From Pseudoalteromonas tetraodonis (GTDB taxonomy: Bacteria; Pseudomonadota; Gammaproteobacteria; Enterobacterales; Alteromonadaceae), in contig NZ_CP011041.1 of NCBI RefSeq assembly GCF_002310835.1, positions 270,001-302,000 of the forward strand: DNA of 32,000 nt, read 5' to 3'. Numbering within the stretch: the first letter of the stretch is position 1; every line of letters starts with the position of its first letter. This document shows, one piece after another, positions 306-19,554 of the stretch. The position numbers and the translations under genes were made by a program. The notes below the pieces were generated by a model. That model was given only the letters and a program-made list of their open reading frames with translations, did no database searches and had not been told where the DNA came from.

Positions 306-407
306 CAAAAAATTTAACAGATTTTACGAGTAACTGTTCACGTGGTTACTCATCAATTTTAAGAATGAGGAATGCCCGCATTTATTGCGGCAAATACTGA
401 GGTAACT

Positions 408-2264
408 ATGGTTAAATTAAGAAGTGCAACGACTACTGAAGGACGTAAACGCGCAGGCGCAAGAGCATTATGGCGTGCAACAGGCATGACCGACACCGAC
501 TTTGGTAAACCAATTATTGCTGTGGTTAACTCATTTACACAATTTGTGCCGGGGCATGTGCATCTTAATCAGCTCAGTGAACTAATGGCTGAAACCATCA
601 CCCAAGCGGGCGGTGTTCCAAAAGAATTTAATACCATCGCCATAGATGACGGTATTGCCATGGGGCACGGCGGTATGCTTTATTCACTGCCATCGCGCGA
701 TTTAATAGCCGACTCGGTAGAGTACATGGTCAATGGCCATTGTGCTGATGCGATGATTTGTATCTCAAACTGCGACAAAATCACCCCTGGGATGATGTTA
801 GCGGCGCTGCGTTTAAATATACCGGTTATTTTTGTATCGGGTGGCCCTATGGAAGCGGGTAAAACTAAATTAGCCAATATCGATATTAAACTCGATTTAG
901 TAGATGCCATGGTTAAAGGTGCCGATGAATCGGTAAGTGATGCCGACTCAGAGCAAGTTGAACGCTCTGCATGCCCTACCTGTGGGTCGTGTTCAGGGAT
1001 GTTTACTGCCAACTCAATGAACTGTTTATTAGAAGCAATAGGCCTTGCGCTGCCGGGTAACGGTACCACGCTTGCGACCCACAAAGACCGTAAACAATTG
1101 TATGTTGAAGCAGGTGCTCGCATCGTTGATTTATGCCGCGAGTATTACCAAAAAGATAACCAAGACGTACTGCCTCGTGCCATCGCTAATAAAACCGCAT
1201 TTATGAACTCTATGGTGGTTGATATTGCCATGGGCGGCTCATCAAATACGGTATTACATTTACTCGCAGCGGCACAAGAAGCTGGCGTTGATTTTGATAT
1301 GTCACACATTGATGAACTTTCACGTAAAACCCCGTTTTTATGTAAAGTTGCCCCAGCTACCGCGCAATACCATATTGAAGACGTACACCGCGCTGGTGGC
1401 ATGATGGCCATAGTACGCGAGCTTGGTAAAGCCGGCTTGGTTGATTTATCGGTTAATCATGTTGCCGGCATGACCATGGGTGAGCTGGTAAAAAAATGGG
1501 ATGCAACGGATCCTAATAACGAAGTGGCGCGAAAGTTTTACCGCGCGGGTCCCGCTGGTATTCGTACTACTAAAGCCATGAGCCAAGATTGCCGTTGGGA
1601 CGAAGGGGATAATGACCGTGAACATGGTTGTATTCGCAGTGTTGAACATGCATTTCGTCAAGATGGCGGTCTGGCGGTACTTTCAGGTAACTTAGCGGTT
1701 GATGGCTGTATTGTTAAAAGTGCCGGCGTTGTCGATGAAATGCTGCACTTTGAAGGCACTGCTGTTGTTTATGAGTCTCAAGATGACTCTGTAGAAGGGA
1801 TTTTAAATGGCGAAGTAAAAGCCGGCGATGTAGTTGTAATTCGTTACGAAGGCCCTAAAGGCGGCCCAGGCATGCAAGAAATGCTATACCCAACCAGCTA
1901 CTTAAAATCAAAAGGCTTGGCTGAAAAATGTGCCTTGATCACCGATGGTCGCTTCTCGGGTGGTACGTCAGGTTTATCAATTGGCCATGTGTCTCCCGAG
2001 GCAGCCAGCGGTGGCGCGATAGCTTATGTTGAAAATGGCGATAAAATTATCATCGATATCGCTACTCGAGAAATCACTTTAGCATTAAGCGATGAGAAAC
2101 TCGAAGCTCGCAGGCAAAAACAATTGGCTCGTGGTAAACAAGCTTATAAGCCGCTTAACCGCGATCGTTATGTGTCATCTGCGCTTAAAGCGTATGCGCT
2201 ACTTGCAACCAGTGCTGATAAAGGTGCGGTGCGTGATTTAGCCAAACTGGAGGAGCTTAGTTAG
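408..2264 (+). CDS. ilvD: Dihydroxy-acid dehydratase
   Basis: Full-length collinearity with E. coli IlvD ([53 protein letters not shown]). The ORF-track start at 372 is over-extended. ATG 408 ([10 protein letters not shown]) aligns with the E. coli N-terminus and has GAGG at 398-401. Confidence 0.95.
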
Positions 2265-2266
2265 GT

Positions 2267-3820
2267 ATGGTTTCTCAAGAACTCGATTATTTTCGCGCTA
2301 TTATCCAAGCCAATATGGAGCCTTTAGCTAAGGTGACTGAGGTGAGTGAAATGGCCGAATTGAGTGCACGATTAGGTAATCATGTTTGGTTAAAGCGTGA
2401 AGATCAGCAACCGGTGTACTCGTTTAAATTACGCGGTGCTTTTAATAAATTAAATAAGCTGCCAAAGGGCTCGGTCGTGATAACCGCATCGGCAGGCAAT
2501 CATGCTCAAGGGGTGGCGCTGAGTGCTTCACACCTAGGGCATAAAGCCACCATTGTTATGCCCGTAACGACGCCTGAAATTAAGGTTAATGCGGTAAGGG
2601 CATTGGGTGGGGAAGTCGTGTTACATGGTCATCAATTTGATGCCGCAAAGGCGTATGCGCTTGAATTAACTGAGCAGCGAAACGGCGTATTTGTCCCTCC
2701 ATTTGATGACCCCGATGTCATTGTTGGTCAAGGCACAGTTGCCCGTGAACTAATGCAACAGCTGAACGACTTAGACGTGGTATTTATTCCTGTTGGCGGC
2801 GGCGGATTGCTGGCGGGTATGGCGGTATACATTAAATCGCTGCGCCCAGATATCAAAGTGATTGGGGTCGAGGCTAATGAAAGCGCTTGTTTAAAAGCTG
2901 CCATGGAAGCGGGAGAGCCTGTAGAGCTAGAAAGAGTAGGAAGCTTTGCCGATGGTGTTGCCGTAAAAATAATTGGTAGCGAAACATTTAGACTGGCGCA
3001 AAAGTTTTGCGATGAAGTGGTGACCGTGTCAGATGATGAAATATGTGCTGCCATGCAAGATATTTTTGTATCAACCCGTGCTATTGCCGAACCTTCAGGC
3101 GCACTTGCAACTGCAGGGCTTAAAAAATGGTCTCAGCAGTCGGGTTTAAAGGGGTTAAACTTAGCGGCTATTTTGTCTGGTGCTAATTTAAATTTTGATC
3201 GCTTACGCTATGTAGCTGAACGTACTGCATTGGGTGAGAAGAACGAAGCATTATTAGCGGTAACAATTGATGAAAAACGCGGTAGCTTTAAACAGTTTTG
3301 TGCCTCTTTAGGTGGGCGCGCTATTACCGAATTTAACTACCGATATGCGGGGCCTGGCGAGGCGCAAATTTTTGTTGGTATTGCACTGCGCCAAGGATTA
3401 GCAGAACTTGAGGAGCTTAAACAAAGCCTAACCGATAATGGCTATTCGTTTTGCGACTTGTCAGATAACGAATTAGCAAAACTGCATGTACGCTATATGG
3501 TTGGTGGTAAAGCGCCAGAGCAGCTACATGAACGCTTACTGCGGTTTGAGTTTCCAGAGTACCCAGGTGCATTAGCGCGCTTTTTAGATACACTGGGTAG
3601 TAATTGGAATATCACTTTATTTCACTACCGTAATCATGGCGGTTCAACGGGTAATGTATTGGCAGGTTTTGCTATTGAGCCAAGTCAATATGAGATGTTT
3701 AATGAGCACTTAAACCGCCTAGGTTACAGTGTTCAAGACGAAACCCATAACCCGTGTTTCACCCAGTTTTTAACCACACAACCTCAAGCAGAAAAGCTTG
3801 AAAAGCTCGCCTTAGCATAA
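2267..3820 (+). CDS. ilvA: Biosynthetic threonine dehydratase (threonine ammonia-lyase)
   Basis: 517 aa. It has the PLP-lysine motif SFKLRGA, the glycine loop PVGGGGLLAG and a long C-terminal regulatory region. It starts 2 nt after the ilvD stop, with GGAGGAG upstream. Confidence 0.95.
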   Translation: MVSQELDYFRAIIQANMEPLAKVTEVSEMAELSARLGNHVWLKREDQQPVYSFKLRGAFNKLNKLPKGSVVITASAGNHAQGVALSASHLGHKATIVMPVTTPEIKVNAVRALGGEVVLHGHQFDAAKAYALELTEQRNGVFVPPFDDPDVIVGQGTVARELMQQLNDLDVVFIPVGGGGLLAGMAVYIKSLRPDIKVIGVEANESACLKAAMEAGEPVELERVGSFADGVAVKIIGSETFRLAQKFCDEVVTVSDDEICAAMQDIFVSTRAIAEPSGALATAGLKKWSQQSGLKGLNLAAILSGANLNFDRLRYVAERTALGEKNEALLAVTIDEKRGSFKQFCASLGGRAITEFNYRYAGPGEAQIFVGIALRQGLAELEELKQSLTDNGYSFCDLSDNELAKLHVRYMVGGKAPEQLHERLLRFEFPEYPGALARFLDTLGSNWNITLFHYRNHGGSTGNVLAGFAIEPSQYEMFNEHLNRLGYSVQDETHNPCFTQFLTTQPQAEKLEKLALA

Positions 3821-4948: not shown

Positions 4949-5043
4949 TGGCTAATTTAACCAATAGAAAAGGTGGGAAAGTTAAGTAATCCCCTTGCTC
5001 TGCGAGGTTAAAAAAATAACCGCTTAATTAGGCGCGAGTGTAC

Positions 5044-5052
5044 TGGTATAAT
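5044..5052 (+). promoter_or_regulatory. Extended -10 promoter element (TGgTATAAT) for the methyltransferase-can-yraR-like operon
   Basis: TGGTATAAT at 5044-5052 is a perfect extended -10, 30 nt upstream of ATG 5082. The -35 is weak (TTAATT at 5024-5029). Confidence 0.55.
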
Positions 5053-5081
5053 TTATTGCCTTTTTAATATTTTAAGCTGTT

Positions 5082-6266
5082 ATGACCTTAACTGAGCAAT
5101 TTACTGCCCTCGATTCGTTACTGATGAATACGCGCTCGTATTGGCAATGTACTGCGTTTGATTTTGACTGTTTACCGTGGCCTGAGTTACACGACCCCCT
5201 AACTGCTTTAACTGATCTGGACGTTGCTGAGTTAGATACTGATCAAGCGCAACTTTATCAGTTTTTTTCACCTTACATACCCGGTATTGAGCAATTAAGC
5301 CAATTAGCTTCACTCCCTGTCATAACAAGCAGTCGAACGGATTATCCGTTTTGGATTAGTAACGGTATTAAAGGACGAAAGTTTACACAGCTACAAGACT
5401 TTGTTGGTGCGCTACCTGCCAATGATCAGCCTATTTTAGAGTGGTGTGCAGGCAAAGGCCATTTAGGACGAATGTTAGCTTTTAATGGTGCGCCGAGCGT
5501 GCACAGTATTGAGCTACAATCTCACTTATGTGAGCAAGGACAAAAAAGTGCGCAGCAACAGGGGCTTGCTATGCAATTTAGCCAAGCTGATGTACTCACA
5601 GATAACACTCAGGATTTTTTTAACCCACAAACCCATGCCGTTGCTTTACATGCCTGCGGTGCGTTACATCAAACTTTTATGCATCAAGCCAGTGCGGCCA
5701 AAGTAACACAAATTAGTTTTTCACCTTGTTGCTATCACTTGTTTACCGAGAATAATTATCAAGCAATGAGCGAACAGGCGAAGCGAAGTGCGCTTAATTT
5801 AACTCATCGAGATTTAAAACTCGCCTTGCAAGAAACCGTCACGGCTCCATCGCGAGTGGGCAAAGTACGAAAAACAGAAGTTGAGTGGCGACTCGGGTTT
5901 GATGCTTTAAGAAAGTCACTCACCGGTGAGTTGGCGTATGTTAGTGTGCCCTCAGTGAATAAAGCAATATTTTCAGATTCGTTTGAATCATTTTGTAAGT
6001 GGGCGGCAGATAAAAAAGCCTTAAAACTGCCAAAAGATATTGATTACAATAAATTTTTATTGATTGGGCAGGCGCGAAAAAAGATAACCGAGCGAGTTGA
6101 ACTGGTTCGACATGTGTTTAGAAGAGCAATAGAAGTTTGGCTTGTGCTCGATCGTGCTTTATATTTGCAACAGCAAGGCTATAACGTCAGTGTTAGTACA
6201 TTTTGTGAGAAGCAATTAACACCCCGTAATATTTTAATTTTAGCCAGTTTAACGCCCTCGACCTAA
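5082..6266 (+). CDS. SAM-dependent methyltransferase (Methyltransf_32-like), substrate unknown
   Basis: 394 aa. It has a glycine-rich SAM motif I (EWCAGKGHLGRML), then SIELQ (motif II-like acidic residue) and ALHACG. An N-terminal extension of about 110 aa has unknown function. Confidence 0.65.
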   Translation: MTLTEQFTALDSLLMNTRSYWQCTAFDFDCLPWPELHDPLTALTDLDVAELDTDQAQLYQFFSPYIPGIEQLSQLASLPVITSSRTDYPFWISNGIKGRKFTQLQDFVGALPANDQPILEWCAGKGHLGRMLAFNGAPSVHSIELQSHLCEQGQKSAQQQGLAMQFSQADVLTDNTQDFFNPQTHAVALHACGALHQTFMHQASAAKVTQISFSPCCYHLFTENNYQAMSEQAKRSALNLTHRDLKLALQETVTAPSRVGKVRKTEVEWRLGFDALRKSLTGELAYVSVPSVNKAIFSDSFESFCKWAADKKALKLPKDIDYNKFLLIGQARKKITERVELVRHVFRRAIEVWLVLDRALYLQQQGYNVSVSTFCEKQLTPRNILILASLTPST

Positions 6267-10045: not shown

Positions 10046-12610
10046 TTATTTTGATTCTGAGCTTATAAGTGTTGAACGTATCGCGCTTTTAAGTGGGTGC
10101 TGTTTGGCAACAAACAAGTTCAAGCCATGCTTATCTAAAAGGGCTCTGAAGTTTAATATTGACGGGCCTTTAGCAATCACTTTAATGTGTTTAAGTTTAG
10201 TGATAGCCAGCAAACCTTGTAGCTGCAAGTCATAGCATTCCTGCTGCAATATTCGTTTACTGAAAGTGGAGCTTAATAGTAAGTAATCAAATTCTATCTC
10301 GGTCACTAAATTAAGCTCGCATTTATCCTTTGCGAAATTATTTAGACCAATAGAGTAGCCCAGCGCTTTAAGCTGTTTTAAGTTTTCTAGTTGCAGCGCA
10401 CTGGCGTAACGTAATTCTTGATCATCAAACAACAAACAAAGTGGATCAATGTTTAATGGCTGCTTTAGTGCAGCAGTTAATAAAGAGAACTCATGCTTTT
10501 CTAAAAGCAGACTTGAGCAAGGCAGAAGAGCAACGCTTATTTCAGAGTCTTTCGCTTGTTGATACGCTTGTAAAATCAGTTGGAGTTCTACTTTTATATG
10601 CTGTTCTTTATCACTTGCAAATTTCTTTAAAATATCAAAACTAGTAAAGCCAAGTACAGGGTGTTCACCAAACGCTTCAAATAATGAGGCATATTGATAA
10701 TGCTCATCCATAGAAATAATATCTGAGCTACGAAACGTCATAGGTAATACATCAAGATGGTGCAATGTTTGTGACTCATGTTGCAGCATTGGCTCTGTGA
10801 GTAACGGGTGAAATAATTCGAAGCGATTTTTACCAGAGTTTTTAGCGTAATACATTGCGGCATCAGCATCTCTAATAATTTCATCTGTATGTTTATAGCT
10901 TTGTTTTGAATAAGTGATACCAATACTCGCGCCGCTTTGCACACAAATACCTTTTGTACAAAAAGGTTTTCGCATGATGTTGATGATTCGATTTGCAACA
11001 TCTTCAGCTTGGTTTGGCTCGGTTAAATGAGTGAGTAAAATTACAAATTCATCTCCCCCTAAGCGTGCTAATAAATCATGCTCACGGATACATTGAGAGA
11101 ACAACTGACCCACGCTAATTAAAAATTCGTCTCCGGCATGGTGCCCAAGCTGGTCGTTTATATCTTTAAATTTATCAAGGTCAATAAACAGTACCGCAAA
11201 GTGCTCATCAGGGTGACGTTGGTAAAACTGTAGCGTTTTTTCTAGCTGCGTTAAAAATAAATTACGATTAGGCAAGCTTGTTAATGAGTCATGGTGCGCA
11301 TCGTGATACAGCTGCTGCTCTATTTTTTTACGCTCATCAATTTGCATCTGTAAATGCAAATTTGCTTGGCTTAGCTCTTTGGTTTTTTCGTTTACTCGAG
11401 AAGCGAGCTCTTGGTGGCTCTTTTTCAGCGCCTGTGAGGCTAATTTTGTTTGTAATACCGTGGCAATTTGATGCGATACAAAGGTTATGAGTTCTGCATC
11501 ATCTTGTGTGAAAAGGTGTTCATTATTATAAGCTTGGCAAACAATTAAACCTATAACTCCTTGCGATGTTTTTAGCGGAGCGCCAAGCCAGCTGGTGGCT
11601 CTTCTAGATTCATCAATTGGTTTTTCACGCTCTACAATGCCACTATCTAATAACTCTTGTGCTCTTTGCGGGTGAATTATTTGTGTTTCTTCGGTGCTGA
11701 TCACCAGCTCACTGTACCCTTTTGCAAAGCGCCTTGGTTGGGTGCTGCCTTGAAATTCGTCAACACTGTAAGGAAAACTAATCCAGCCCGTTTCTTTATC
11801 ATACAAGGCAATATAAAGATTTTTTGCGTAAGTGATGGTTTTTATTATTTCGTGTATTTGAAAATAAGCATCATCTAGGTTTTTAGCTTGAGTTGTCAGC
11901 TCTGAAATTTTAAATAATATTTGCTGGCGTTGCAGGGCGCTTTTTCGCTGTTGTATTTCAACATTTAAAGCATCATTGCTTTGCGTTAATGCACGGGTTC
12001 TTAGTTTTACTTCTGATTCGAGCAACTCTCGTTTCTTAACGCGTTCAATAGCTGTCGCTAAATAAAGTGACATTGCTTCAAGTAGGTTTATTTGTTGCGA
12101 ACTATAACCTTGCTCAGTGTCGTAACTTTGCGCTGCTAATACGCCAATAATATTTTTTTCTTGATAAACTGGAACGCCTACCCAGTGTTCTGCAGGTGTA
12201 CCTAATGCTTTAAATAAGCCTTGCTGTGCAGCATCATGCATTTGTTGCTTAGTGAAATAAGTGGTCTTTCCTTGCTTAAACACATAACCCGTTGCGCCTT
12301 CTTCAAAATTATTCTCCCGATTAAGTGGTACAGAAATTCCATCTTTTTCATCAGAAAAATAAGACAGTTCCAACTGTTGTGATTGCGGCTCAACAAGCAC
12401 CACATAAAAGCTTTTACTCGGGACATACTTTTGTAAAATGTCATGAATAGCTGGGTAAAGTAAGGTTAATTCGGCAACAGTACTTGCTTGCTCTGATAGC
12501 TGTATCAGGGCATTGTGGAGGTGGTAGGCATGTTTGTACTTTTTCAATAGTGCTTTTAGTCGTTTATTTTGGCGCACTACGCTACTCGGTACAATGAGTT
12601 TATCTTCCAA
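10046..12610 (-). CDS. Cytoplasmic GAF-GAF-GGDEF diguanylate cyclase with a degenerate C-terminal EAL-like domain
   Basis: 854 aa. Two GAF-like regions are each followed by a coiled-coil linker. The GGDEF (LARLGGDEFV) is intact and has a canonical I-site, REHD, 5 residues upstream. The C-terminal ~250 aa are EAL-like but have EAF in place of EAL and lack DYLKID-type motifs. The start is TTG 12610 without a clear SD, so it is uncertain (alternative GTG 12577). Confidence 0.8.
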   Translation of the reverse strand: MEDKLIVPSSVVRQNKRLKALLKKYKHAYHLHNALIQLSEQASTVAELTLLYPAIHDILQKYVPSKSFYVVLVEPQSQQLELSYFSDEKDGISVPLNRENNFEEGATGYVFKQGKTTYFTKQQMHDAAQQGLFKALGTPAEHWVGVPVYQEKNIIGVLAAQSYDTEQGYSSQQINLLEAMSLYLATAIERVKKRELLESEVKLRTRALTQSNDALNVEIQQRKSALQRQQILFKISELTTQAKNLDDAYFQIHEIIKTITYAKNLYIALYDKETGWISFPYSVDEFQGSTQPRRFAKGYSELVISTEETQIIHPQRAQELLDSGIVEREKPIDESRRATSWLGAPLKTSQGVIGLIVCQAYNNEHLFTQDDAELITFVSHQIATVLQTKLASQALKKSHQELASRVNEKTKELSQANLHLQMQIDERKKIEQQLYHDAHHDSLTSLPNRNLFLTQLEKTLQFYQRHPDEHFAVLFIDLDKFKDINDQLGHHAGDEFLISVGQLFSQCIREHDLLARLGGDEFVILLTHLTEPNQAEDVANRIINIMRKPFCTKGICVQSGASIGITYSKQSYKHTDEIIRDADAAMYYAKNSGKNRFELFHPLLTEPMLQHESQTLHHLDVLPMTFRSSDIISMDEHYQYASLFEAFGEHPVLGFTSFDILKKFASDKEQHIKVELQLILQAYQQAKDSEISVALLPCSSLLLEKHEFSLLTAALKQPLNIDPLCLLFDDQELRYASALQLENLKQLKALGYSIGLNNFAKDKCELNLVTEIEFDYLLLSSTFSKRILQQECYDLQLQGLLAITKLKHIKVIAKGPSILNFRALLDKHGLNLFVAKQHPLKSAIRSTLISSESK

Positions 12611-14486: not shown

Positions 14487-14558
14487 GTCGTTTTATTTAC
14501 TGCCTTATGGCATGCTTACACTCATATTACTTTTTTGTATTTAGGATCCAATTTTACC

Positions 14559-17294
14559 ATGGCTCAGATCCCCGAAAACCCGCTTATTTTAGTTGATGGC
14601 TCTTCATATTTGTTTCGTGCTTATCATTCACCACCACATCTAACCAACTCTAAGGGTGAGGCCACCGGTGCCATTTATGGCGTGGTAAACATGCTTAAAA
14701 GTTTAATCAAACAATATGATCCCTCACATATGGTGGTGGTATTTGACGCCAAAGGTAAAACCTTCAGAAATGATATGTACAGTGAGTATAAAGCGAACCG
14801 TCCGCCAATGCCTGATGATCTGCGTACTCAAATAGCGCCGCTGCACAGTATTATCAAAGCAATGGGTTTTCCGTTAATTAGTATTGAGGGCGTGGAAGCC
14901 GATGACGTAATCGGTACTTTTGCACGGATTGCCTCTGAGCAACAACGTCATGTGCTGGTATCGACTGGTGATAAAGATATGGCGCAGTTGGTCAATGAGC
15001 ATGTAACCTTGATTAATACCATGACCGACAGCATTTCAGATCCCGAAACTGTGGTTGAAAAGTTTGGTGTTGGACCTGAACTTATTATCGACTATTTAGC
15101 TTTAATGGGCGACAAAGTAGATAATATTCCTGGCGTTGAGGGTTGTGGACCTAAAACAGCGGTTAAATGGTTACAAAAGTACGGATCGCTTCAGGGCGTA
15201 ATTGATAATGCTTCTGATATAAAAGGTAAAATAGGCGAGAAACTGGCAAAAGCGATTGATCATTTACCGTTAAGCTATGAGCTTGCCACTATTAAATGTG
15301 ATGTTGAGGTTGAATCTGATCTTGATACTTTTAAATTACAAACACCGAATAAAGACGAATTAATTGCCTTATACGGTGAATGTGAGTTTCGTCGTTGGCT
15401 AGCTGAATTGCTAGACAACCCAAAAGATGCCGACACACATTTAGCAGTCCCAACGCAAGAGAATGAGCTGCCAAAAGTTGAAGATGCGCACTATGAAACT
15501 ATTTTAACTGAGGCCCAATTTGAGACATTAATAGAACAGCTTAATGAAGCTGAGCTATTTGCTTTTGATACAGAAACAACCAGTTTAGAGTATATGAAAG
15601 CGCAATTGGTCGGTATGAGCTTTGCGGTTAAAGCAGGGGAAGCGGCTTATTTACCAATAGCACACGATTACCCCGGTGCGCCCGAGCAGTTAAGCCTTGA
15701 ATTTGTGATGCAAAAGTTGGGGCCGATATTAGCAGACGAAAATAAAGCTAAAGTAGGTCAAAATCTAAAATACGATAAAAGCGTGCTTGCCAATGCAGGC
15801 TATGAATTAAATGGTATTAAGTTCGACACTATGTTGGAGTCTTATGTATTTAATAGCGTAGGCACCCGTCATGATATGGACTCGTTGGCGCTTAAATATT
15901 TAGGCCACAAAAATATTAGCTTTGAAGATATTGCAGGTAAAGGTAAAAAGCAGCTTACATTTAATCAAATAGAACTTGAAAAAGCAGCGCCTTATGCCGC
16001 TGAAGATGCCGATATTACTTTGCGTTTGCACCAAGTGTTATGGCCGAAACTTGAAGCGGATGAAAAACTAAAATCGGTGTTTGAAGATATAGAAATGCCA
16101 CTAGTAAGTGTTATTTCTGATATTGAGCGCACCGGTGTTGCTATCGACAGCAACATGTTGGCCACGCATAGCCAACGTTTAGGTGAGCGATTACTTGAGC
16201 TTGAAAAAGAAGCGTTTGAAATCGCGGGCGAACCGTTTAACTTAAGCTCACCAAAGCAACTACAGGTGCTGTTATTTGAAAAGCTCGAATTGCCCGTTAT
16301 CAAAAAAACACCTAAAGGCGCGCCCTCTACAGCAGAAGAAGTACTACAAGAGTTAGCGCATGATTACCCATTGCCTAAAGTGATTATTGAGCATCGTGGT
16401 TTATCTAAGCTCAAATCAACCTACACCGATAAGTTACCCTTGATAGTCAATGAACGCACGCAGCGAGTGCATACTTCTTATCACCAAGCGGTAACAGCAA
16501 CAGGTCGATTAAGCTCAAGCGATCCTAATTTACAAAATATTCCTATTCGTTCAGAGGAAGGGCGTCGTATTCGTGAAGCGTTTATTGCCGCAGATGGGTA
16601 TAAAATTGTGGCTGCCGATTACAGCCAAATAGAACTGCGTATTATGGCGCATCTCTCGCAAGATAAGGGATTACTAAGCGCATTTGCTAATGGCTTAGAT
16701 GTTCACAGTGCCACGGCTGCTGAAGTATTTGGGGTTGAGCTTGAAGAGGTAACATCAGATATGCGCCGTAAAGCTAAAGCGGTAAACTTTGGCTTAATTT
16801 ATGGCATGTCAGCATTTGGCTTAGCACGTCAACTTGATGTACCACGCCATGAAGCGCAGCATTATATTGATAAATATTTTGAGCGTTTTCCAGGTGTTTT
16901 AGAATACATGGAAACAACGCGTGAGAAAGCGGCCGAAAATGGCTATGTAGAAACAATTTTTGGCCGTCGCTTACATTTACCAGAAATAAATGCGCGCAAT
17001 GGCGCTCGTCGCAAAGGCGCTGAGCGCGCAGCAATTAATGCACCGATGCAAGGCACTGCGGCTGATATTATTAAAAAAGCGATGTTAAGCGTGCATGCTT
17101 GGGTTAATCAGCAAGCACCTAATACAGTTAAGCTGCTCATGCAGGTACACGATGAATTGGTATTTGAGATTAAAACAGAATGTACTGAGCAATATACCAA
17201 ACAGATTTGTGAGCTGATGTCACAAGCGGCGCAGTTAGATGTACCACTTATTGTTGAAGCTGACGAAGGTGATAACTGGGAACAAGCACACTAA
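14559..17294 (+). CDS. polA: DNA polymerase I
   Basis: 911 aa. [23 protein letters not shown] aligns with the E. coli PolA N-terminus ([23 protein letters not shown]). It has the 5'-nuclease, 3'-5' exonuclease (FDTETTSL) and polymerase motifs ([21 protein letters not shown]). The track start TTG 14535 is over-extended. Confidence 0.97.
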   Translation: [911 protein letters not shown]

Positions 17295-17353
17295 TTTAGC
17301 GCTACTGTACTGGTTTTAATATAGGCCAAATACAGAGTCAAAAAAGAGAATCA

Positions 17354-17375
17354 TAAAGCGCCGCTAGGCGCTTTT
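17354..17375 (+). terminator. Rho-independent terminator of polA
   Basis: AGCGCC (17356-17361), loop GCTA, GGCGCT (17366-17371), followed by TTTT. Confidence 0.8.
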
Positions 17376-17507
17376 TCTTTATCTTGCAGGTTAAAAAAAA
17401 GTTAAATTAAACAGCAGTTTGTATTAAATCGTTAGAGGTTCGTCAATTCGCTACGATTATCAATAATATGCTTGTATTTTTACACTTGCTTTTGGTAAAG
17501 TGCCGCC

Positions 17508-17621
17508 CGTCCTCATCCTGTAGGACATCCTGTTGATGATGCATCGTAAGATGCAACGTATTAATAGCTTCTCCCCAGTTTGCTATATCGGCCTATCATA
17601 TATTTGATGGGCCGTTTTTTT
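17508..17621 (+). ncRNA. Candidate small RNA (~115 nt) downstream of polA, at the spf-syntenic position but not recognisably Spot 42
   Basis: A putative sigma70 promoter is TTGTAT (17472-17477), 18-nt spacer, TAAAGT (17496-17501). Hairpins are GTCCT/AGGAC (17509-17526) and TGCATC-GTAA-GATGCA (17540-17555). A strong terminator is CGGCCTATCA (17589-17598)/TGATGGGCCG (17605-17614) plus T7 (17615-17621). The 5' end is inferred only. Confidence 0.55.
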
Positions 17622-17794
17622 ATTGTCTTGCATCCAAGCGTTAAATTTATTCTCTAATTGCACTTAGCGTTTCAAGTGATACCATCAGTCTACTTAGCAT
17701 TTTCGATTTACCACACAGTAACTAATGATTTTCAGCTGGGCTGATCAAAGTATTATTTTTACCGGTATAAGTCTTTTTATTTTAGGAGTGCATT

Positions 17795-18382
17795 ATGTTT
17801 AAAACGTTAGCTATCGCAGGTTTATCTTTATCATGTTTACTAGTTTCAGGTGCTGCATCGGCAAACTGGCAACTATTGAACGATAAAAGCCAATTAAGTT
17901 TTGTATCAATTAAAAAAAATAGCATTGCTGAAGCAAGTCACTTTACTCAGTTAGCTGGGCAGCTGAGCGATCAGGGTCAATTTAGCGTAAACGTTGATTT
18001 AACCTCAGCCGAAACCTTTATCCCTATCCGTAACGAACGTTTAAGTAAGATATTGTTTGAGTCTGACACGTTTGCAAACGCAGTATTAACCGCTGACTTA
18101 TCTGATAAGTTGTCACTTATTAAGCAACCAGGGCAGTACGTATTAAAAGGTATTAGCGCTGAGCTAGACTTTCATGGTCATAAAAAGCCACTTGCTGTTG
18201 ATGTACTCGTAAGCAGTGCGGCCAATGGAGATTTAAGTGTGGCATCATTCACTCCTATCATTATCAACAGTGATGACTTTAAGATCACCGAAGGGGTAAT
18301 GCAGTTACAAAAATTAGCCGGATTACCTTCAATTGCTACTGCCGTGCCAGTTACTTTTGCACTGACATTTAAAAAACAGTGA
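17795..18382 (+). CDS. YceI-like periplasmic (polyisoprenoid-binding fold) protein
   Basis: It has a signal peptide MFKTLAIAGLSLSCLLVSGAASA and a YceI-like pattern (W.L...S.LSFVS.K., IPIRNERL...LFESD.F..A). An SD AGGAG precedes the ATG. Confidence 0.6.
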   Translation: MFKTLAIAGLSLSCLLVSGAASANWQLLNDKSQLSFVSIKKNSIAEASHFTQLAGQLSDQGQFSVNVDLTSAETFIPIRNERLSKILFESDTFANAVLTADLSDKLSLIKQPGQYVLKGISAELDFHGHKKPLAVDVLVSSAANGDLSVASFTPIIINSDDFKITEGVMQLQKLAGLPSIATAVPVTFALTFKKQ

Positions 18383-18897
18383 TTTCACTTAACGAGCTTA
18401 GCAAGCAACTCAGCGAGCCAAGCAAACCTTTTGAACAATGGCAGCCCGCTCACTGCGGGCAGTTACCATTATTGATTGATGAGCAAGGTAAATGGTTTTA
18501 CGCAGGTAGTGAAATTACCCGTCAATCAATGGTGAAACTTTTTGCCAGTGTATTATGCAACGAAGATGGGCAGTTTTACTTAAAAACACCCGTAGAAAAA
18601 ATCGCGATTGAGGTGAAGGATGCGCCTTTTATTATTGTAAATTGGCATAGTGAAAAGACATCAGAGGGAAGTGTTATTTGTTGTATTGATAACTTAAACC
18701 GCACATGGCTATTAAGTCGTTCTGAGTCACTTTATATCAATGACTACAAAGGTGCGGCTGTGCCTTATATGCAGTTACCCTACGGCTGCTTTGCGCGAGT
18801 TGCGCGAAATGTGTTTTATCAGTGGGCTGAAATAGCCGAAACAGATGAGCTCGGCTATTTTATTACCTCCGCACAGCAGAAATTTTACTTACAGTAA
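18379..18897 (+). CDS. DUF1285-family protein
   Basis: 172 aa. The GTG start overlaps the yceI-like stop (GTGA). The pattern ..IDEQGKWFYAGSEITRQSMVKLFASVL...DGQFYLKTPVEKI.IEV.DAPF is typical of DUF1285 as I recall it. Confidence 0.6.
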   Translation: MISLNELSKQLSEPSKPFEQWQPAHCGQLPLLIDEQGKWFYAGSEITRQSMVKLFASVLCNEDGQFYLKTPVEKIAIEVKDAPFIIVNWHSEKTSEGSVICCIDNLNRTWLLSRSESLYINDYKGAAVPYMQLPYGCFARVARNVFYQWAEIAETDELGYFITSAQQKFYLQ

Positions 18898-19554
18898 TTA
18901 TTCGCTATCTGGCGCTACTAAATCAGCAGGTGGAACGGCCACGATTGGGCCTAAATACCACTCATCTAGCTTTTTAGCGACTTCTGGTAAGCCGGTGCCT
19001 TTAAGTGATGAAAATGCATGAACCGTAATATCGCCATCTAATTCACTTAACTCACGACGTACGCTAAGAACTTGTGATTTACGCGGACCTTGCTTTAGCT
19101 TATCGGCTTTAGTTAATAGTGCCAATACCGGAATTTCACTGCCTACAGCCCAATTAATTAAGTCGCGGTCTAAATCTTTTAATGGATGACGAATATCCAT
19201 TAATACCACAATACCTTTTAAACTTTGACGTTTTTGCAGGTATTCGCCTAGCGATTTTTGCCATTTCTTTTTCATTTCAATCGGCACTTTTGCAAACCCA
19301 TAGCCAGGTAGGTCAATTAGGCGCATATTATCTACATCGGCAAGTTCAAAGGTGTTGATCAGCTGAGTACGGCCGGGTGTTTTACTGGTTCGTGCTAACT
19401 TTTGATCGGTTAGGGCATTTAGCGCACTTGATTTACCTGCATTAGAGCGACCGGCAAACGCGACTTCAATTCCCGTATCAGCAGGTAATTTAGTGATGTC
19501 TGGCGCGCTTGTAACAAAAGACGCAGTGTTATACTTGATACGAGATTTGAGCAC
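18898..19554 (-). CDS. engB: Ribosome-biogenesis GTPase EngB (YihA)
   Basis: It has [17 protein letters not shown] (G1), DLPGYG (G3) and LTKADK (G4), and is collinear with E. coli YihA. The GTG start has AGGAG 5 nt upstream. Confidence 0.93.

Follow-up and report, generated by a model that had tools for sequence, protein, structure and literature searches.

Introduction

In Escherichia coli the spacer between polA and engB (yihA) holds spf, the gene of Spot 42, and the corresponding spacer of Pseudoalteromonas tetraodonis raises the question of which RNA fills the slot there. We analysed a stretch of 32,000 nucleotides (nt) of contig NZ_CP011041.1 (positions 270,001 to 302,000; hereafter the window, with its own numbering), in which an earlier note had placed a terminator-bounded small RNA (sRNA) candidate after polA, at the position of spf, and had left it as either a highly diverged analogue of Spot 42 or a different sRNA at the same locus. 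The position is indeed that of the spf slot. The comparisons reported here indicate that the element, a + strand unit of about 113 nt, is an sRNA gene throughout the genus, that it is not a Spot 42 orthologue despite the shared slot, and that it is likely to be homologous to an sRNA that stands beside Spot 42 in Shewanella. It represents a well-known kind of sRNA and is itself uncharacterised.

To our knowledge, almost no base-pairing sRNAs have been characterised in Pseudoalteromonas, a major marine genus and a model of cold adaptation. A preprint of July 2026 (10.64898/2026.07.10.737749) predicts "spf homologs" in this genus from synteny, conservation and a fold resembling that of E. coli Spot 42, and reports no experiments. 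Its context table puts DNA polymerase I and YceI on either side of the candidate; the neighbours are a lipase and YceI in P. simplex, and DNA polymerase I and YihA in P. piratica, whose DUF1285 gene is placed elsewhere. Judging by that table, the candidate occupies the same spacer as the present element and would be identical to it; because the preprint covers this spacer, the sRNA candidate is already in the literature. New here are the covariation support, the exact anatomy, the rejection of the open reading frame (ORF) and leader readings, the absence of the sequence and model features by which Spot 42 and ErsA are defined, and the link to a previously undescribed Shewanella sRNA.

Conservation, structure and strand of the element

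The element was present in 57 of the 57 other Pseudoalteromonas loci examined, ten of which had been retrieved without its sequence. Three genomes obtained through PolA alone carry it immediately downstream of polA (nhmmer E 1e-16 to 1e-20). Of the 54 loci that a 20-mer of the element retrieved in a metagenome scan, 47 are true homologues in the same gene context and seven are chance matches in coding sequence. Because such a scan fixes 20 bases by construction, seven further lineages, including P. citrea and P. luteoviolacea, were retrieved through EngB homologues alone, and the element was found in all seven, with 83-119 bits under the covariance model R1. The same model gave 130 bits at the window sRNA, 83-145 bits in 34 other Pseudoalteromonas loci, and 83-88 bits in three lineages that lack yceI (L135, L136 and L137). 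Outside the genus, an EngB homologue search aimed at Psychrosphaera, Flocculibacter and Algicola returned only Pseudoalteromonas among its best 120 matches.

Conservation is concentrated in two blocks. The four PolA-anchored Pseudoalteromonas sequences, from lineages with PolA C-termini 81% identical, show a pairwise identity of 0.98 for the 5' block and 0.92 for the middle block; hairpin 2 (0.76), the terminator (0.67) and the flanks (0.41-0.54) are less alike. The sequence block AUCCUGUUGAUGAU, which follows hairpin 1, is unchanged across the ten independently retrieved lineages, and the middle block AUAGCUUCUCCCCAG(A/U)UUGCUAU is likewise the same in all ten; two metagenome lineages differ in the latter at 2-3 positions. 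The sRNA is among the most conserved non-coding elements of the locus.

Structure was assessed on an alignment of 35 sequences, in which 97.7% of the cells assigned to stems are paired and double-sided changes occur in 14 pairs (four in hairpin 2, nine in the terminator and one in hairpin 1). The covariation score was reached by none of 500 shuffles, sliding the partners by 1-3 columns lowered pairing to 30-42%, and an independent MAFFT alignment gave the same picture. The + strand of the window element folds at -38.5 kcal/mol (z = -4.8 against dinucleotide shuffles). A gene on the minus strand was rejected, and the + strand is taken to be the transcribed one, because about 50 G-U cells of the alignment become A-C mismatches on the opposite strand, the minus strand folds less well and it offers no U tail. 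No transfer or transfer-messenger RNA was found in a search for them. On comparative grounds the conserved island is an sRNA gene across the genus, being conserved, structured, assignable to one strand and independent of its neighbours; the proposal of an independent + strand unit with conserved promoter, hairpins and terminator was borne out in the relatives.

Anatomy of the sRNA

The RNA is read as a 5' stem-loop, a single-stranded linker (seed A), a variable second hairpin, a third hairpin whose loop forms seed B, and a Rho-independent terminator (Table 1). The positions given earlier for promoter, 8-mer, hairpin, tract, terminator and ORF all agree with the sequence.

The stem of hairpin 1 is present in all sequences and shows a single compensatory change, U-A to C-G, in L137. 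Its loop is replaced by AUA in L135 and by GUUUUAC in L137 (GUCCC-GUUUUAC-GGGGC); because of these replacements, alignment identifies hairpin 1 as a structural 5' stem-loop in which the first CAUCCUGU copy is dispensable. The 8-mer CATCCTGT stands at 17514-17521 and 17526-17533, with no further copies in the 32 kb. Only the second copy belongs to seed A, CAUCCUGUUGAUGAUG, which is the same in the ten independently retrieved lineages apart from its first and last base (L137 differs). In partition-function folding of all 35 sequences, CAUCCUGU (nt 19-26, predicted unpaired probability 0.5-0.9) and the CUCCCC loop are the most open conserved segments.

Hairpin 2 carries double-sided changes in four of its seven pairs, with 99% of cells paired, and the terminator, which the terminator scan places where it had been proposed, carries compensatory changes in nine of ten. 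Hairpin 3 behaves in the opposite manner: its stem and the core UCCCCAG are identical in 34 of 34 distinct sequences, and only loop positions 2-3 vary, in two lineages (L082 and L087). The tract CTTCTCCCC (17568-17576) sits in this loop, which is predicted to be open, flanked by the stem ATAGC/GCTAT. Two small hairpins had been recognised before, and both are present; the invariant third one at 17564-17586, around CTTCTCCCC, had been missed. The C/U-rich stretches singled out as pairing motifs are indeed predicted to be exposed, and seed A and the hairpin-3 loop are conserved, but the repetition of the 8-mer is lineage-specific and its first copy is not found genus-wide.

Table 1. Features of the window and of the related Shewanella loci (window numbering unless a locus handle is given)
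Feature	Position	Strand	Basis or remark
ilvD	372-2264		
ilvA	2267-3820		
polA (DNA polymerase I), upstream anchor	14535..17294	+	Pfam DNA_pol_A, 5'-3' and 3'-5' exonuclease domains
polA intrinsic terminator, separating polA from the sRNA unit	17355..17383	+	Terminator scan: 8-bp stem, T-rich tail
Direct repeat GTTAA-N6-GTTAA, possible regulator site	17390..17405 (about -119 to -104)	+	GTWAA-N6-GTWAA in 42 upstream variants
Upstream block GTTAGAGGTTCGTCAATT	17431..17448 (about -78 to -61)	+	Near-invariant GTTAnAnGTTyrTCAAT in upstream alignment
Promoter	17472..17508	+	-35 TTGTAT 17472-17477; extended -10 TGgTAAAGT 17493-17501; discriminator GCCGCCC 17502-17508
sRNA, ~113 nt	17509..17621	+	5' end placed from promoter geometry; 3' end at the U tract
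Hairpin 1	17509..17526	+	GUCCU/AGGAC stem, loop CAUCCUGU (8-mer copy 1)
Seed A, CAUCCUGUUGAUGAUG	17526..17541	+	Single-stranded linker holding 8-mer copy 2
23-codon ORF MMHRKMQRINSFSPVCYIGLSYI, rejected as gene	17536..17607	+	Frame and length differ among 28 variants
Hairpin 2, GCAUC-GUAA-GAUGC, variable in sequence and length	17540..17555	+	GCATC-GTAA-GATGC at 17541-17554
Hairpin 3	17564..17586	+	AUAGC/GCUAU stem, loop UUCUCCCCAGUUU (seed B)
Rho-independent terminator	17589..17621	+	10-bp stem and U7 tail; terminator scan: 17589-17614, 10 pairs, 6 G-C, then T7
yceI-like and DUF1285 gene pair, outside the sRNA unit	17795..18897	+	Pfam
yceI-like gene	17795-18382	+	
DUF1285 gene	18379-18897	+	
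engB (yihA), downstream anchor of the spf locus	18898..19554	-	Pfam MMR_HSR1; 99% identity to P. tetraodonis YihA
Shewanella second sRNA	L007 5885-5996, L011 5376-5488, L026 5324-5427	+	
Shewanella second sRNA	L142 2797-2905, L143 2778-2887, L144 2842-2947	-	
Shewanella second sRNA	L145 2781-2886, L146 2777-2888, L147 2678-2793	-	

Promoter and upstream region

The sigma70-type promoter proposed at 17472-17501 (TTGTAT/TAAAGT) is conserved among relatives; the generic promoter scan did not call it, and its support is that conservation. The hexamer TAAAGT at 17496-17501 belongs to an extended -10, TGgTAAAGT (17493-17501), and the corresponding motif TTTG-N-TA(A/C)AGT is invariant in all variants, preceded at 17-18 nt by a weak -35. 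Between the -10 and hairpin 1 lie 6-7 bases that differ in sequence yet in nearly all variants consist of G and C alone, against a G+C content of 41%. A G/C discriminator is a feature of stringently controlled promoters in established E. coli promoter biology, and by this analogy we infer that the discriminator is under selection; it points to a promoter that is strong in growing cells and silenced under stringent conditions.

Farther upstream, the direct repeat with its 11-bp spacing (GTWAA-N6-GTWAA) resembles direct-repeat sites of response regulators such as ArcA boxes, and may possibly serve as a regulator site.

Is the element a Spot 42?

The main alternative, put forward in the preprint 10.64898/2026.07.10.737749 from structural similarity and synteny, is that the element is a highly diverged spf orthologue which kept the fold and the role in carbon metabolism of Spot 42 and lost its sequence similarity. 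In its favour are the shared slot and strand, the occurrence of the RNA in L135-L137 as sole element of the spacer, as for spf in E. coli, and a similar length and hairpin/linker/hairpin/terminator layout. Furthermore, R1 matches Spot 42 genes weakly (19-21 bits, E 0.05-0.14); it is the terminator, however, that produces these matches, and R1 gives a better score to an unrelated site.

Neither the window nor L001-L003 contains a match to the Rfam Spot_42 model (RF00021) at its gathering threshold of 80 bits, and relaxing the limit to E<=10 in 17280-17800 yields none either. With the same library, Spot 42 is recovered downstream of polA in Vibrio, Enterovibrio, Escherichia and Shewanella (87-129 bits), and so are altered forms, at 61 bits in Motilimonas (L015) and 36 bits in an Alteromonadaceae metagenome-assembled genome (L006). 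The hallmark GUAGGGUACAGAGG and the conserved 5' sequence GUAGGGUACAGAGGU of Spot 42 gave no match in the window at up to three mismatches; local alignment with Spot 42, terminators removed, stayed at chance level (p 0.09-0.68); a site like that of CRP, TGTGA-N6-TCACA, had no match at up to two mismatches in 17300-17510; and there is no conserved small ORF. Moreover, the closest relative of the element occurs together with Spot 42 in nine of nine Shewanella species, as described below, which points to two separate lineages. By model, sequence and promoter features the sRNA is not a Spot 42 orthologue despite the shared slot, and descent from spf appears unlikely to us. The earlier observation that the element does not align with Spot 42 was thus sound, the controls having been detected.

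No Rfam family reached its gathering threshold in the window, and at E<=10 only noise appeared (STnc240, tsr26, VrrA, mmgR and others, 12-22 bits).

The altered Spot 42 genes deserve a note of their own. In Alteromonas (L004 5018-5090) and in the Alteromonadaceae genome (L006 ~5035-5108) the RNA is reduced to about 73 nt, its 5' half with GUAGGGUACAGAGG being fused to the terminator, and in Motilimonas (L015 5038-5174) it carries an internal insertion. All three fall below the Rfam gathering score (36 and 61 bits, or undetected).

A second sRNA beside Spot 42 in Shewanella

Nine of nine Shewanella species carry a second, unannotated, terminator-bounded sRNA of 104-116 nt, placed 70-100 nt after Spot 42 (Table 1). 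Its promoter contains a conserved palindrome, TTTAGAGTAWWTACTTTAA, in all nine; a variable, covarying 5' hairpin is followed by an almost invariant core, CUUGAGUCUUGUUGAAUUUAGCUUCUCCCCAAAAGAGCUAA, within which UAGCU/AGCUA makes a hairpin presenting CUCCCC, and by a covarying terminator. The RNA belongs to no Rfam family in an Rfam search, and a literature search gave no description of it. Locus, strand and length are those of the Pseudoalteromonas RNA, the loop motif UAGCUUCUCCCCA is common to both, and in both, in the same order, a UUGUUGA/UGUUGA linker lies upstream of the UAGCUUCUCCCCA hairpin and a terminator downstream.

The relationship was examined by several searches. A 15-mer derived from the Pseudoalteromonas RNA, allowed up to two mismatches in 1.37 Mb of gammaproteobacterial loci, occurs only in Pseudoalteromonas and in the Shewanella spf-engB spacer; chance would give about 1.3 matches in the whole set, and about 0.03 if only correctly oriented syntenic spacers are counted. 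Local alignment of the two RNAs gave p values of 0.0075-0.07. In nhmmer with the Pseudoalteromonas seed blocks the best outside match was in Shewanella (L007), at no better than E = 0.25. The covariance model R2, built from the nine Shewanella sequences only (alignment A8), ranks the Pseudoalteromonas RNA first in four of four sources (the window, L003, L135 and L137), with 19.9-27.2 bits and nominal E-values of 6e-3 to 9e-5; the scores are 27 bits (E about 1e-4) in L135 and L137 and 21 in L003. On Spot 42 genes R2 gave 13.8 bits or less, which is no match. With this moderate statistical support, homology of the Pseudoalteromonas RNA and the Shewanella second sRNA is quite likely. Because the Shewanella relative co-exists with Spot 42, the sRNA would belong to a second lineage and not to spf, and of the two possibilities left by the earlier note a different sRNA at the same locus is the favoured one.

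Of the remaining R2 matches with E<0.1, the majority fall within the polA-engB spacer, in + orientation. They include Cellvibrio L032 (32 bits), Idiomarina L009 and L041, L030, and ErsA in L060 and L044; on ErsA genes and on the RNAs that follow polA in Idiomarina and Cellvibrio the scores are weak (~20-32 bits). Many of the RNAs so matched follow a sigmaE-type promoter and carry a C/U-rich tract near the terminator. The polA-engB slot appears, from these matches, to hold several sRNAs.

It is possible, and we offer it tentatively, that two ancient, separate lineages share the spacer: Spot 42, and an ErsA-like one marked by its U/G-rich linker and C-rich hairpin loop, which would be under sigmaE in Pseudomonas, Idiomarina, Cellvibrio and others but transferred to sigma70 promoters in Shewanella and Pseudoalteromonas. 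Pseudoalteromonas would then have lost Spot 42, retained just the second lineage and added a 5' hairpin, a seed and a growth-linked promoter of stringent type. If so, an envelope-stress RNA has been repurposed for the growth-phase niche of Spot 42, and the link to ErsA would offer a tractable case of an sRNA that keeps its seeds while its promoter logic is rewired.

In Enterovibrio norvegicus (L019 5300-5460, + strand) a further element follows Spot 42. Its promoter motif (TTAGAGTAAATACTTTAG, then TATAAT) is that of the Shewanella second sRNA; the RNA ends in CAUCUCCAUGUUGAUUCU plus a terminator and scores no more than 15 bits with R2.

Proposed mode of action

The element is probably an independently transcribed, trans-acting sRNA, the counterpart of the Shewanella second sRNA, acting as a base-pairing repressor. 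It has the features of the Hfq-type class: its own promoter, a terminator with at least six U residues and a conserved, accessible seed. In the model that we propose, a sigma70 promoter with extended -10 and G/C-only discriminator would start transcription at about G17509, and the intrinsic terminator would end it at about 17621. The 5' stem-loop would be protective. It would be followed by the single-stranded invariant seed CAUCCUGUUGAUGAU, by the variable hairpin as a spacer, by the third hairpin, presenting the invariant C/U-rich loop UUCUCCCCAG, and by a terminator hairpin with U tail of the kind bound by Hfq. One or both seeds would pair imperfectly with purine-rich ribosome-binding regions, for instance GGGGAGAA or ACAGGAUG, blocking translation and promoting decay of several messenger RNAs (mRNAs). 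In evolutionary terms, the RNA would be the counterpart of the spf-adjacent sRNA of Shewanella with an added 5' hairpin. The seeds are complementary to the purine-rich ribosome-binding sequences ACAGGAUG and UGGGGAGAA, and for this reason translational repression of several mRNAs seems the most likely activity; we infer Hfq dependence, anti-Shine-Dalgarno pairing and stringent control.

Targets were sought with RNAduplex in the window and in 23 Pseudoalteromonas loci. The full-length RNA gave meaningless long-range pairing. With the seeds, the best lead is a duplex of seed B, GCUUCUCCCCAGUUUG, with CAAACUGGAGGAGC at ~2241-2254, in the ilvD-ilvA junction just 5' of ilvA, of 14 bp with a 2-nt bulge and -18 to -20 kcal/mol.

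Several observations weigh against the reading as a base-pairing counterpart of the Shewanella RNA: (i) hairpins 1 and 3 are too nearly invariant for covariation to confirm them; (ii) in an alternative fold UGUUGAUG pairs with UAUUGAUAG and hides part of seed A, its UGAUGAU part being able to pair with UAUUGAUAG and both being invariant; (iii) the palindrome TTTAGAGTAWWTACTTTAA is confined to the Shewanella promoter and absent from the Pseudoalteromonas upstream alignment, the two promoters being unrelated; (iv) the R2 score in the window, 19.9, is only just higher than the 19.3 of the best background match, R1 run globally on Shewanella gives 10-13 bits without discrimination, nhmmer with a three-sequence Shewanella core is not significant in the window (E = 2.1), and the short calibration of R1 and R2 makes their E-values rough; and (v) in RNAduplex the seeds have no target conserved between the loci searched, the ilvD-ilvA lead lying in about the 1% tail of the background, which is not significant across 72 tests.

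The seeds also admit a reading in which the RNA is mainly a sponge or decoy. Its partners would be CsrA sites in mRNAs or, in the Csr sRNAs Pf1-Pf3, GGA repeats of the CAGGAUG type. CAUCCUG is the exact complement of the CAGGAUG repeats, and ACAGGAUG, of which CAUCCUGU is the reverse complement, is known from the Csr sRNAs as the classical repeat of CsrB type. The Csr sRNAs of Pseudoalteromonas number three and contain 9-25 GGA motifs (PMC11882849, PMC9927453). So far the match is a coincidence of sequence, and an anti-Shine-Dalgarno seed explains the motif equally well; we regard a sponge as improbable.

Independence from the neighbouring genes

The gene order in the window is polA(+), sRNA, yceI-like(+), DUF1285(+), engB(-) and cytochrome c4, and in most Pseudoalteromonas the yceI/DUF1285 pair sits between the sRNA and engB. 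Wherever yceI is present (~40 loci), the sRNA lies directly upstream on the same strand. It stays beside yceI in P. citrea (L138), where polA has been relocated, and in strain T1lg65 (L140), where a TonB_C gene (5718-6176) has been inserted upstream. This constancy, together with the terminator at its end, would suit a cis-acting leader, attenuator or riboswitch-like, governing read-through into the yceI-DUF1285 operon. The RNA is no such leader, however, because L135-L137 have kept it and have neither yceI nor DUF1285: polA and engB are there directly convergent, the sRNA is the sole element of the 214-282 nt between them, and its terminator faces the 3' end of engB. These lineages largely refute the leader, and other features argue in the same sense. 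The distance from terminator to yceI ranges from ~80 to ~360 nt over an unconserved spacer, no anti-terminator pairing is conserved because the terminator sequence varies freely, and the promoter scan places a promoter-like site of its own upstream of yceI (17729-17756). A leader function is therefore very improbable.

That the locus is a gene for a small protein, the 23-residue peptide of 17536-17607, or that the RNA has this peptide as a second product is equally improbable; the earlier note had kept the ORF as an alternative or additional reading. The frame, with an ATG-ATG start, is open in the window and has a precedent in the 15-residue SpfP encoded by Spot 42 (preprint 10.64898/2026.08.28.747715), but over 28 variants the peptide ranges from 4 to 29 residues and falls in either of two unrelated frames, since hairpin 2 differs in length by non-multiples of three, and conservation tracks RNA structure through compensatory changes, not codons.

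Regarding the surroundings, the polA-engB spacer of the yceI-less lineages lies at 4652-4933 in L135 and L136 and at 4685-4898 in L137. In four metagenome lineages (L098, L122, L124 and L131) 1.3-2.1 kb separate polA from an sRNA that remains beside yceI. Insertions and rearrangements are frequent on the side of the sRNA that faces polA. Across the Gammaproteobacteria the polA/engB neighbourhood is unusually rich in sRNA genes, with CsrC in Escherichia (L057 6190-6442), CsrB and RyhB in Motilimonas (L015 440-722 and 1467-1527) and RyhB in Vibrio (L014 1664-1729).

Comparison with known systems

Spot 42 (RF00021) and the Pseudoalteromonas RNA occupy one slot in one orientation, downstream of polA and ahead of a convergent engB. 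Both are ~110 nt long and form an independent sigma70 unit with intrinsic terminator, and both are probably base-pairing sRNAs with several seeds. The Pseudoalteromonas RNA differs in having neither model nor sequence similarity to it, no CRP site and no SpfP-like ORF, and in possessing C/U-rich seeds, an extended -10 and a G/C discriminator. From its Shewanella relative it is set apart by hairpin 1 and the CAUCCUG motif, which the latter lacks, and by the presence there of a true Spot 42 alongside.

ErsA/Pseudomon-1 of Pseudomonas (RF01719, model threshold 50 bits) likewise lies just after polA and before engB, is ~115-130 nt long, and carries a C-rich hairpin loop towards its 3' end; its seed is U-rich and unstructured (PMC5819304). 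The hairpin/U-rich linker/C-rich loop/terminator layout looks similar, though R2 connects the Shewanella, Idiomarina, Cellvibrio and ErsA RNAs only at ~20-32 bits. RF01719 does not match the Pseudoalteromonas RNA at E<=10, whereas Pseudomonas controls score 70-138 bits, and a direct sequence similarity was discarded (local alignment p > 0.6). The sigmaE/AlgU-type promoter GAACTW-N15-17-TCNNA, which precedes ErsA-type genes, is absent 5' of the sRNA, its single match in the window being at 12099. In 80 gammaproteobacterial loci this motif has 37 + strand matches, 23 of them within 500 nt after the polA stop (among others L009 4922, L012 4936, L041 4921, L006 5147, L032 4986 and 5161, L064 4916, L075 4993, L080 5078 and many Pseudomonas), a distribution which suggests that ErsA-like envelope-stress sRNAs after polA reach Idiomarina, Cellvibrio, Methylococcales and others.

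The C/U-rich anti-Shine-Dalgarno sRNAs MmgR (RF00519), anti-hemB (RF02837) and PsrR1 have in common with the element a C/U-rich loop followed by a terminator. The MmgR and anti-hemB type provides the sole weak Rfam resemblances to the sRNA and to its Shewanella relative (13-24 bits); none of the scores comes near its gathering threshold, and the families belong to unrelated phyla. The likeness is one of class, not of family.

VSsrna24 of the Vibrionaceae is a second Hfq-bound, glucose-repressed sRNA downstream of spf (PMC3295665, PMC7148568). By description only, it is carbon-controlled, shares its intergenic region with the present RNA, and differs from it in its reported ~60 nt and restriction to Vibrionaceae. 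A short conserved Vibrionaceae element, UAUUUCUCUCCCGUU followed by a G/C-rich terminator and abutting the 3' end of engB, may be VSsrna24 (+ strand; L014 ~5535-5583, L017 ~5525-5570, L019 ~5700-5750).

The two invariant seeds of the Pseudoalteromonas RNA should ease target prediction and genetics. To share the slot is not to share the RNA: the site after polA holds Spot 42, ErsA-like RNAs, the Shewanella second sRNA and the reported VSsrna24, a diversity that counsels caution in calling homologues from synteny and fold alone.

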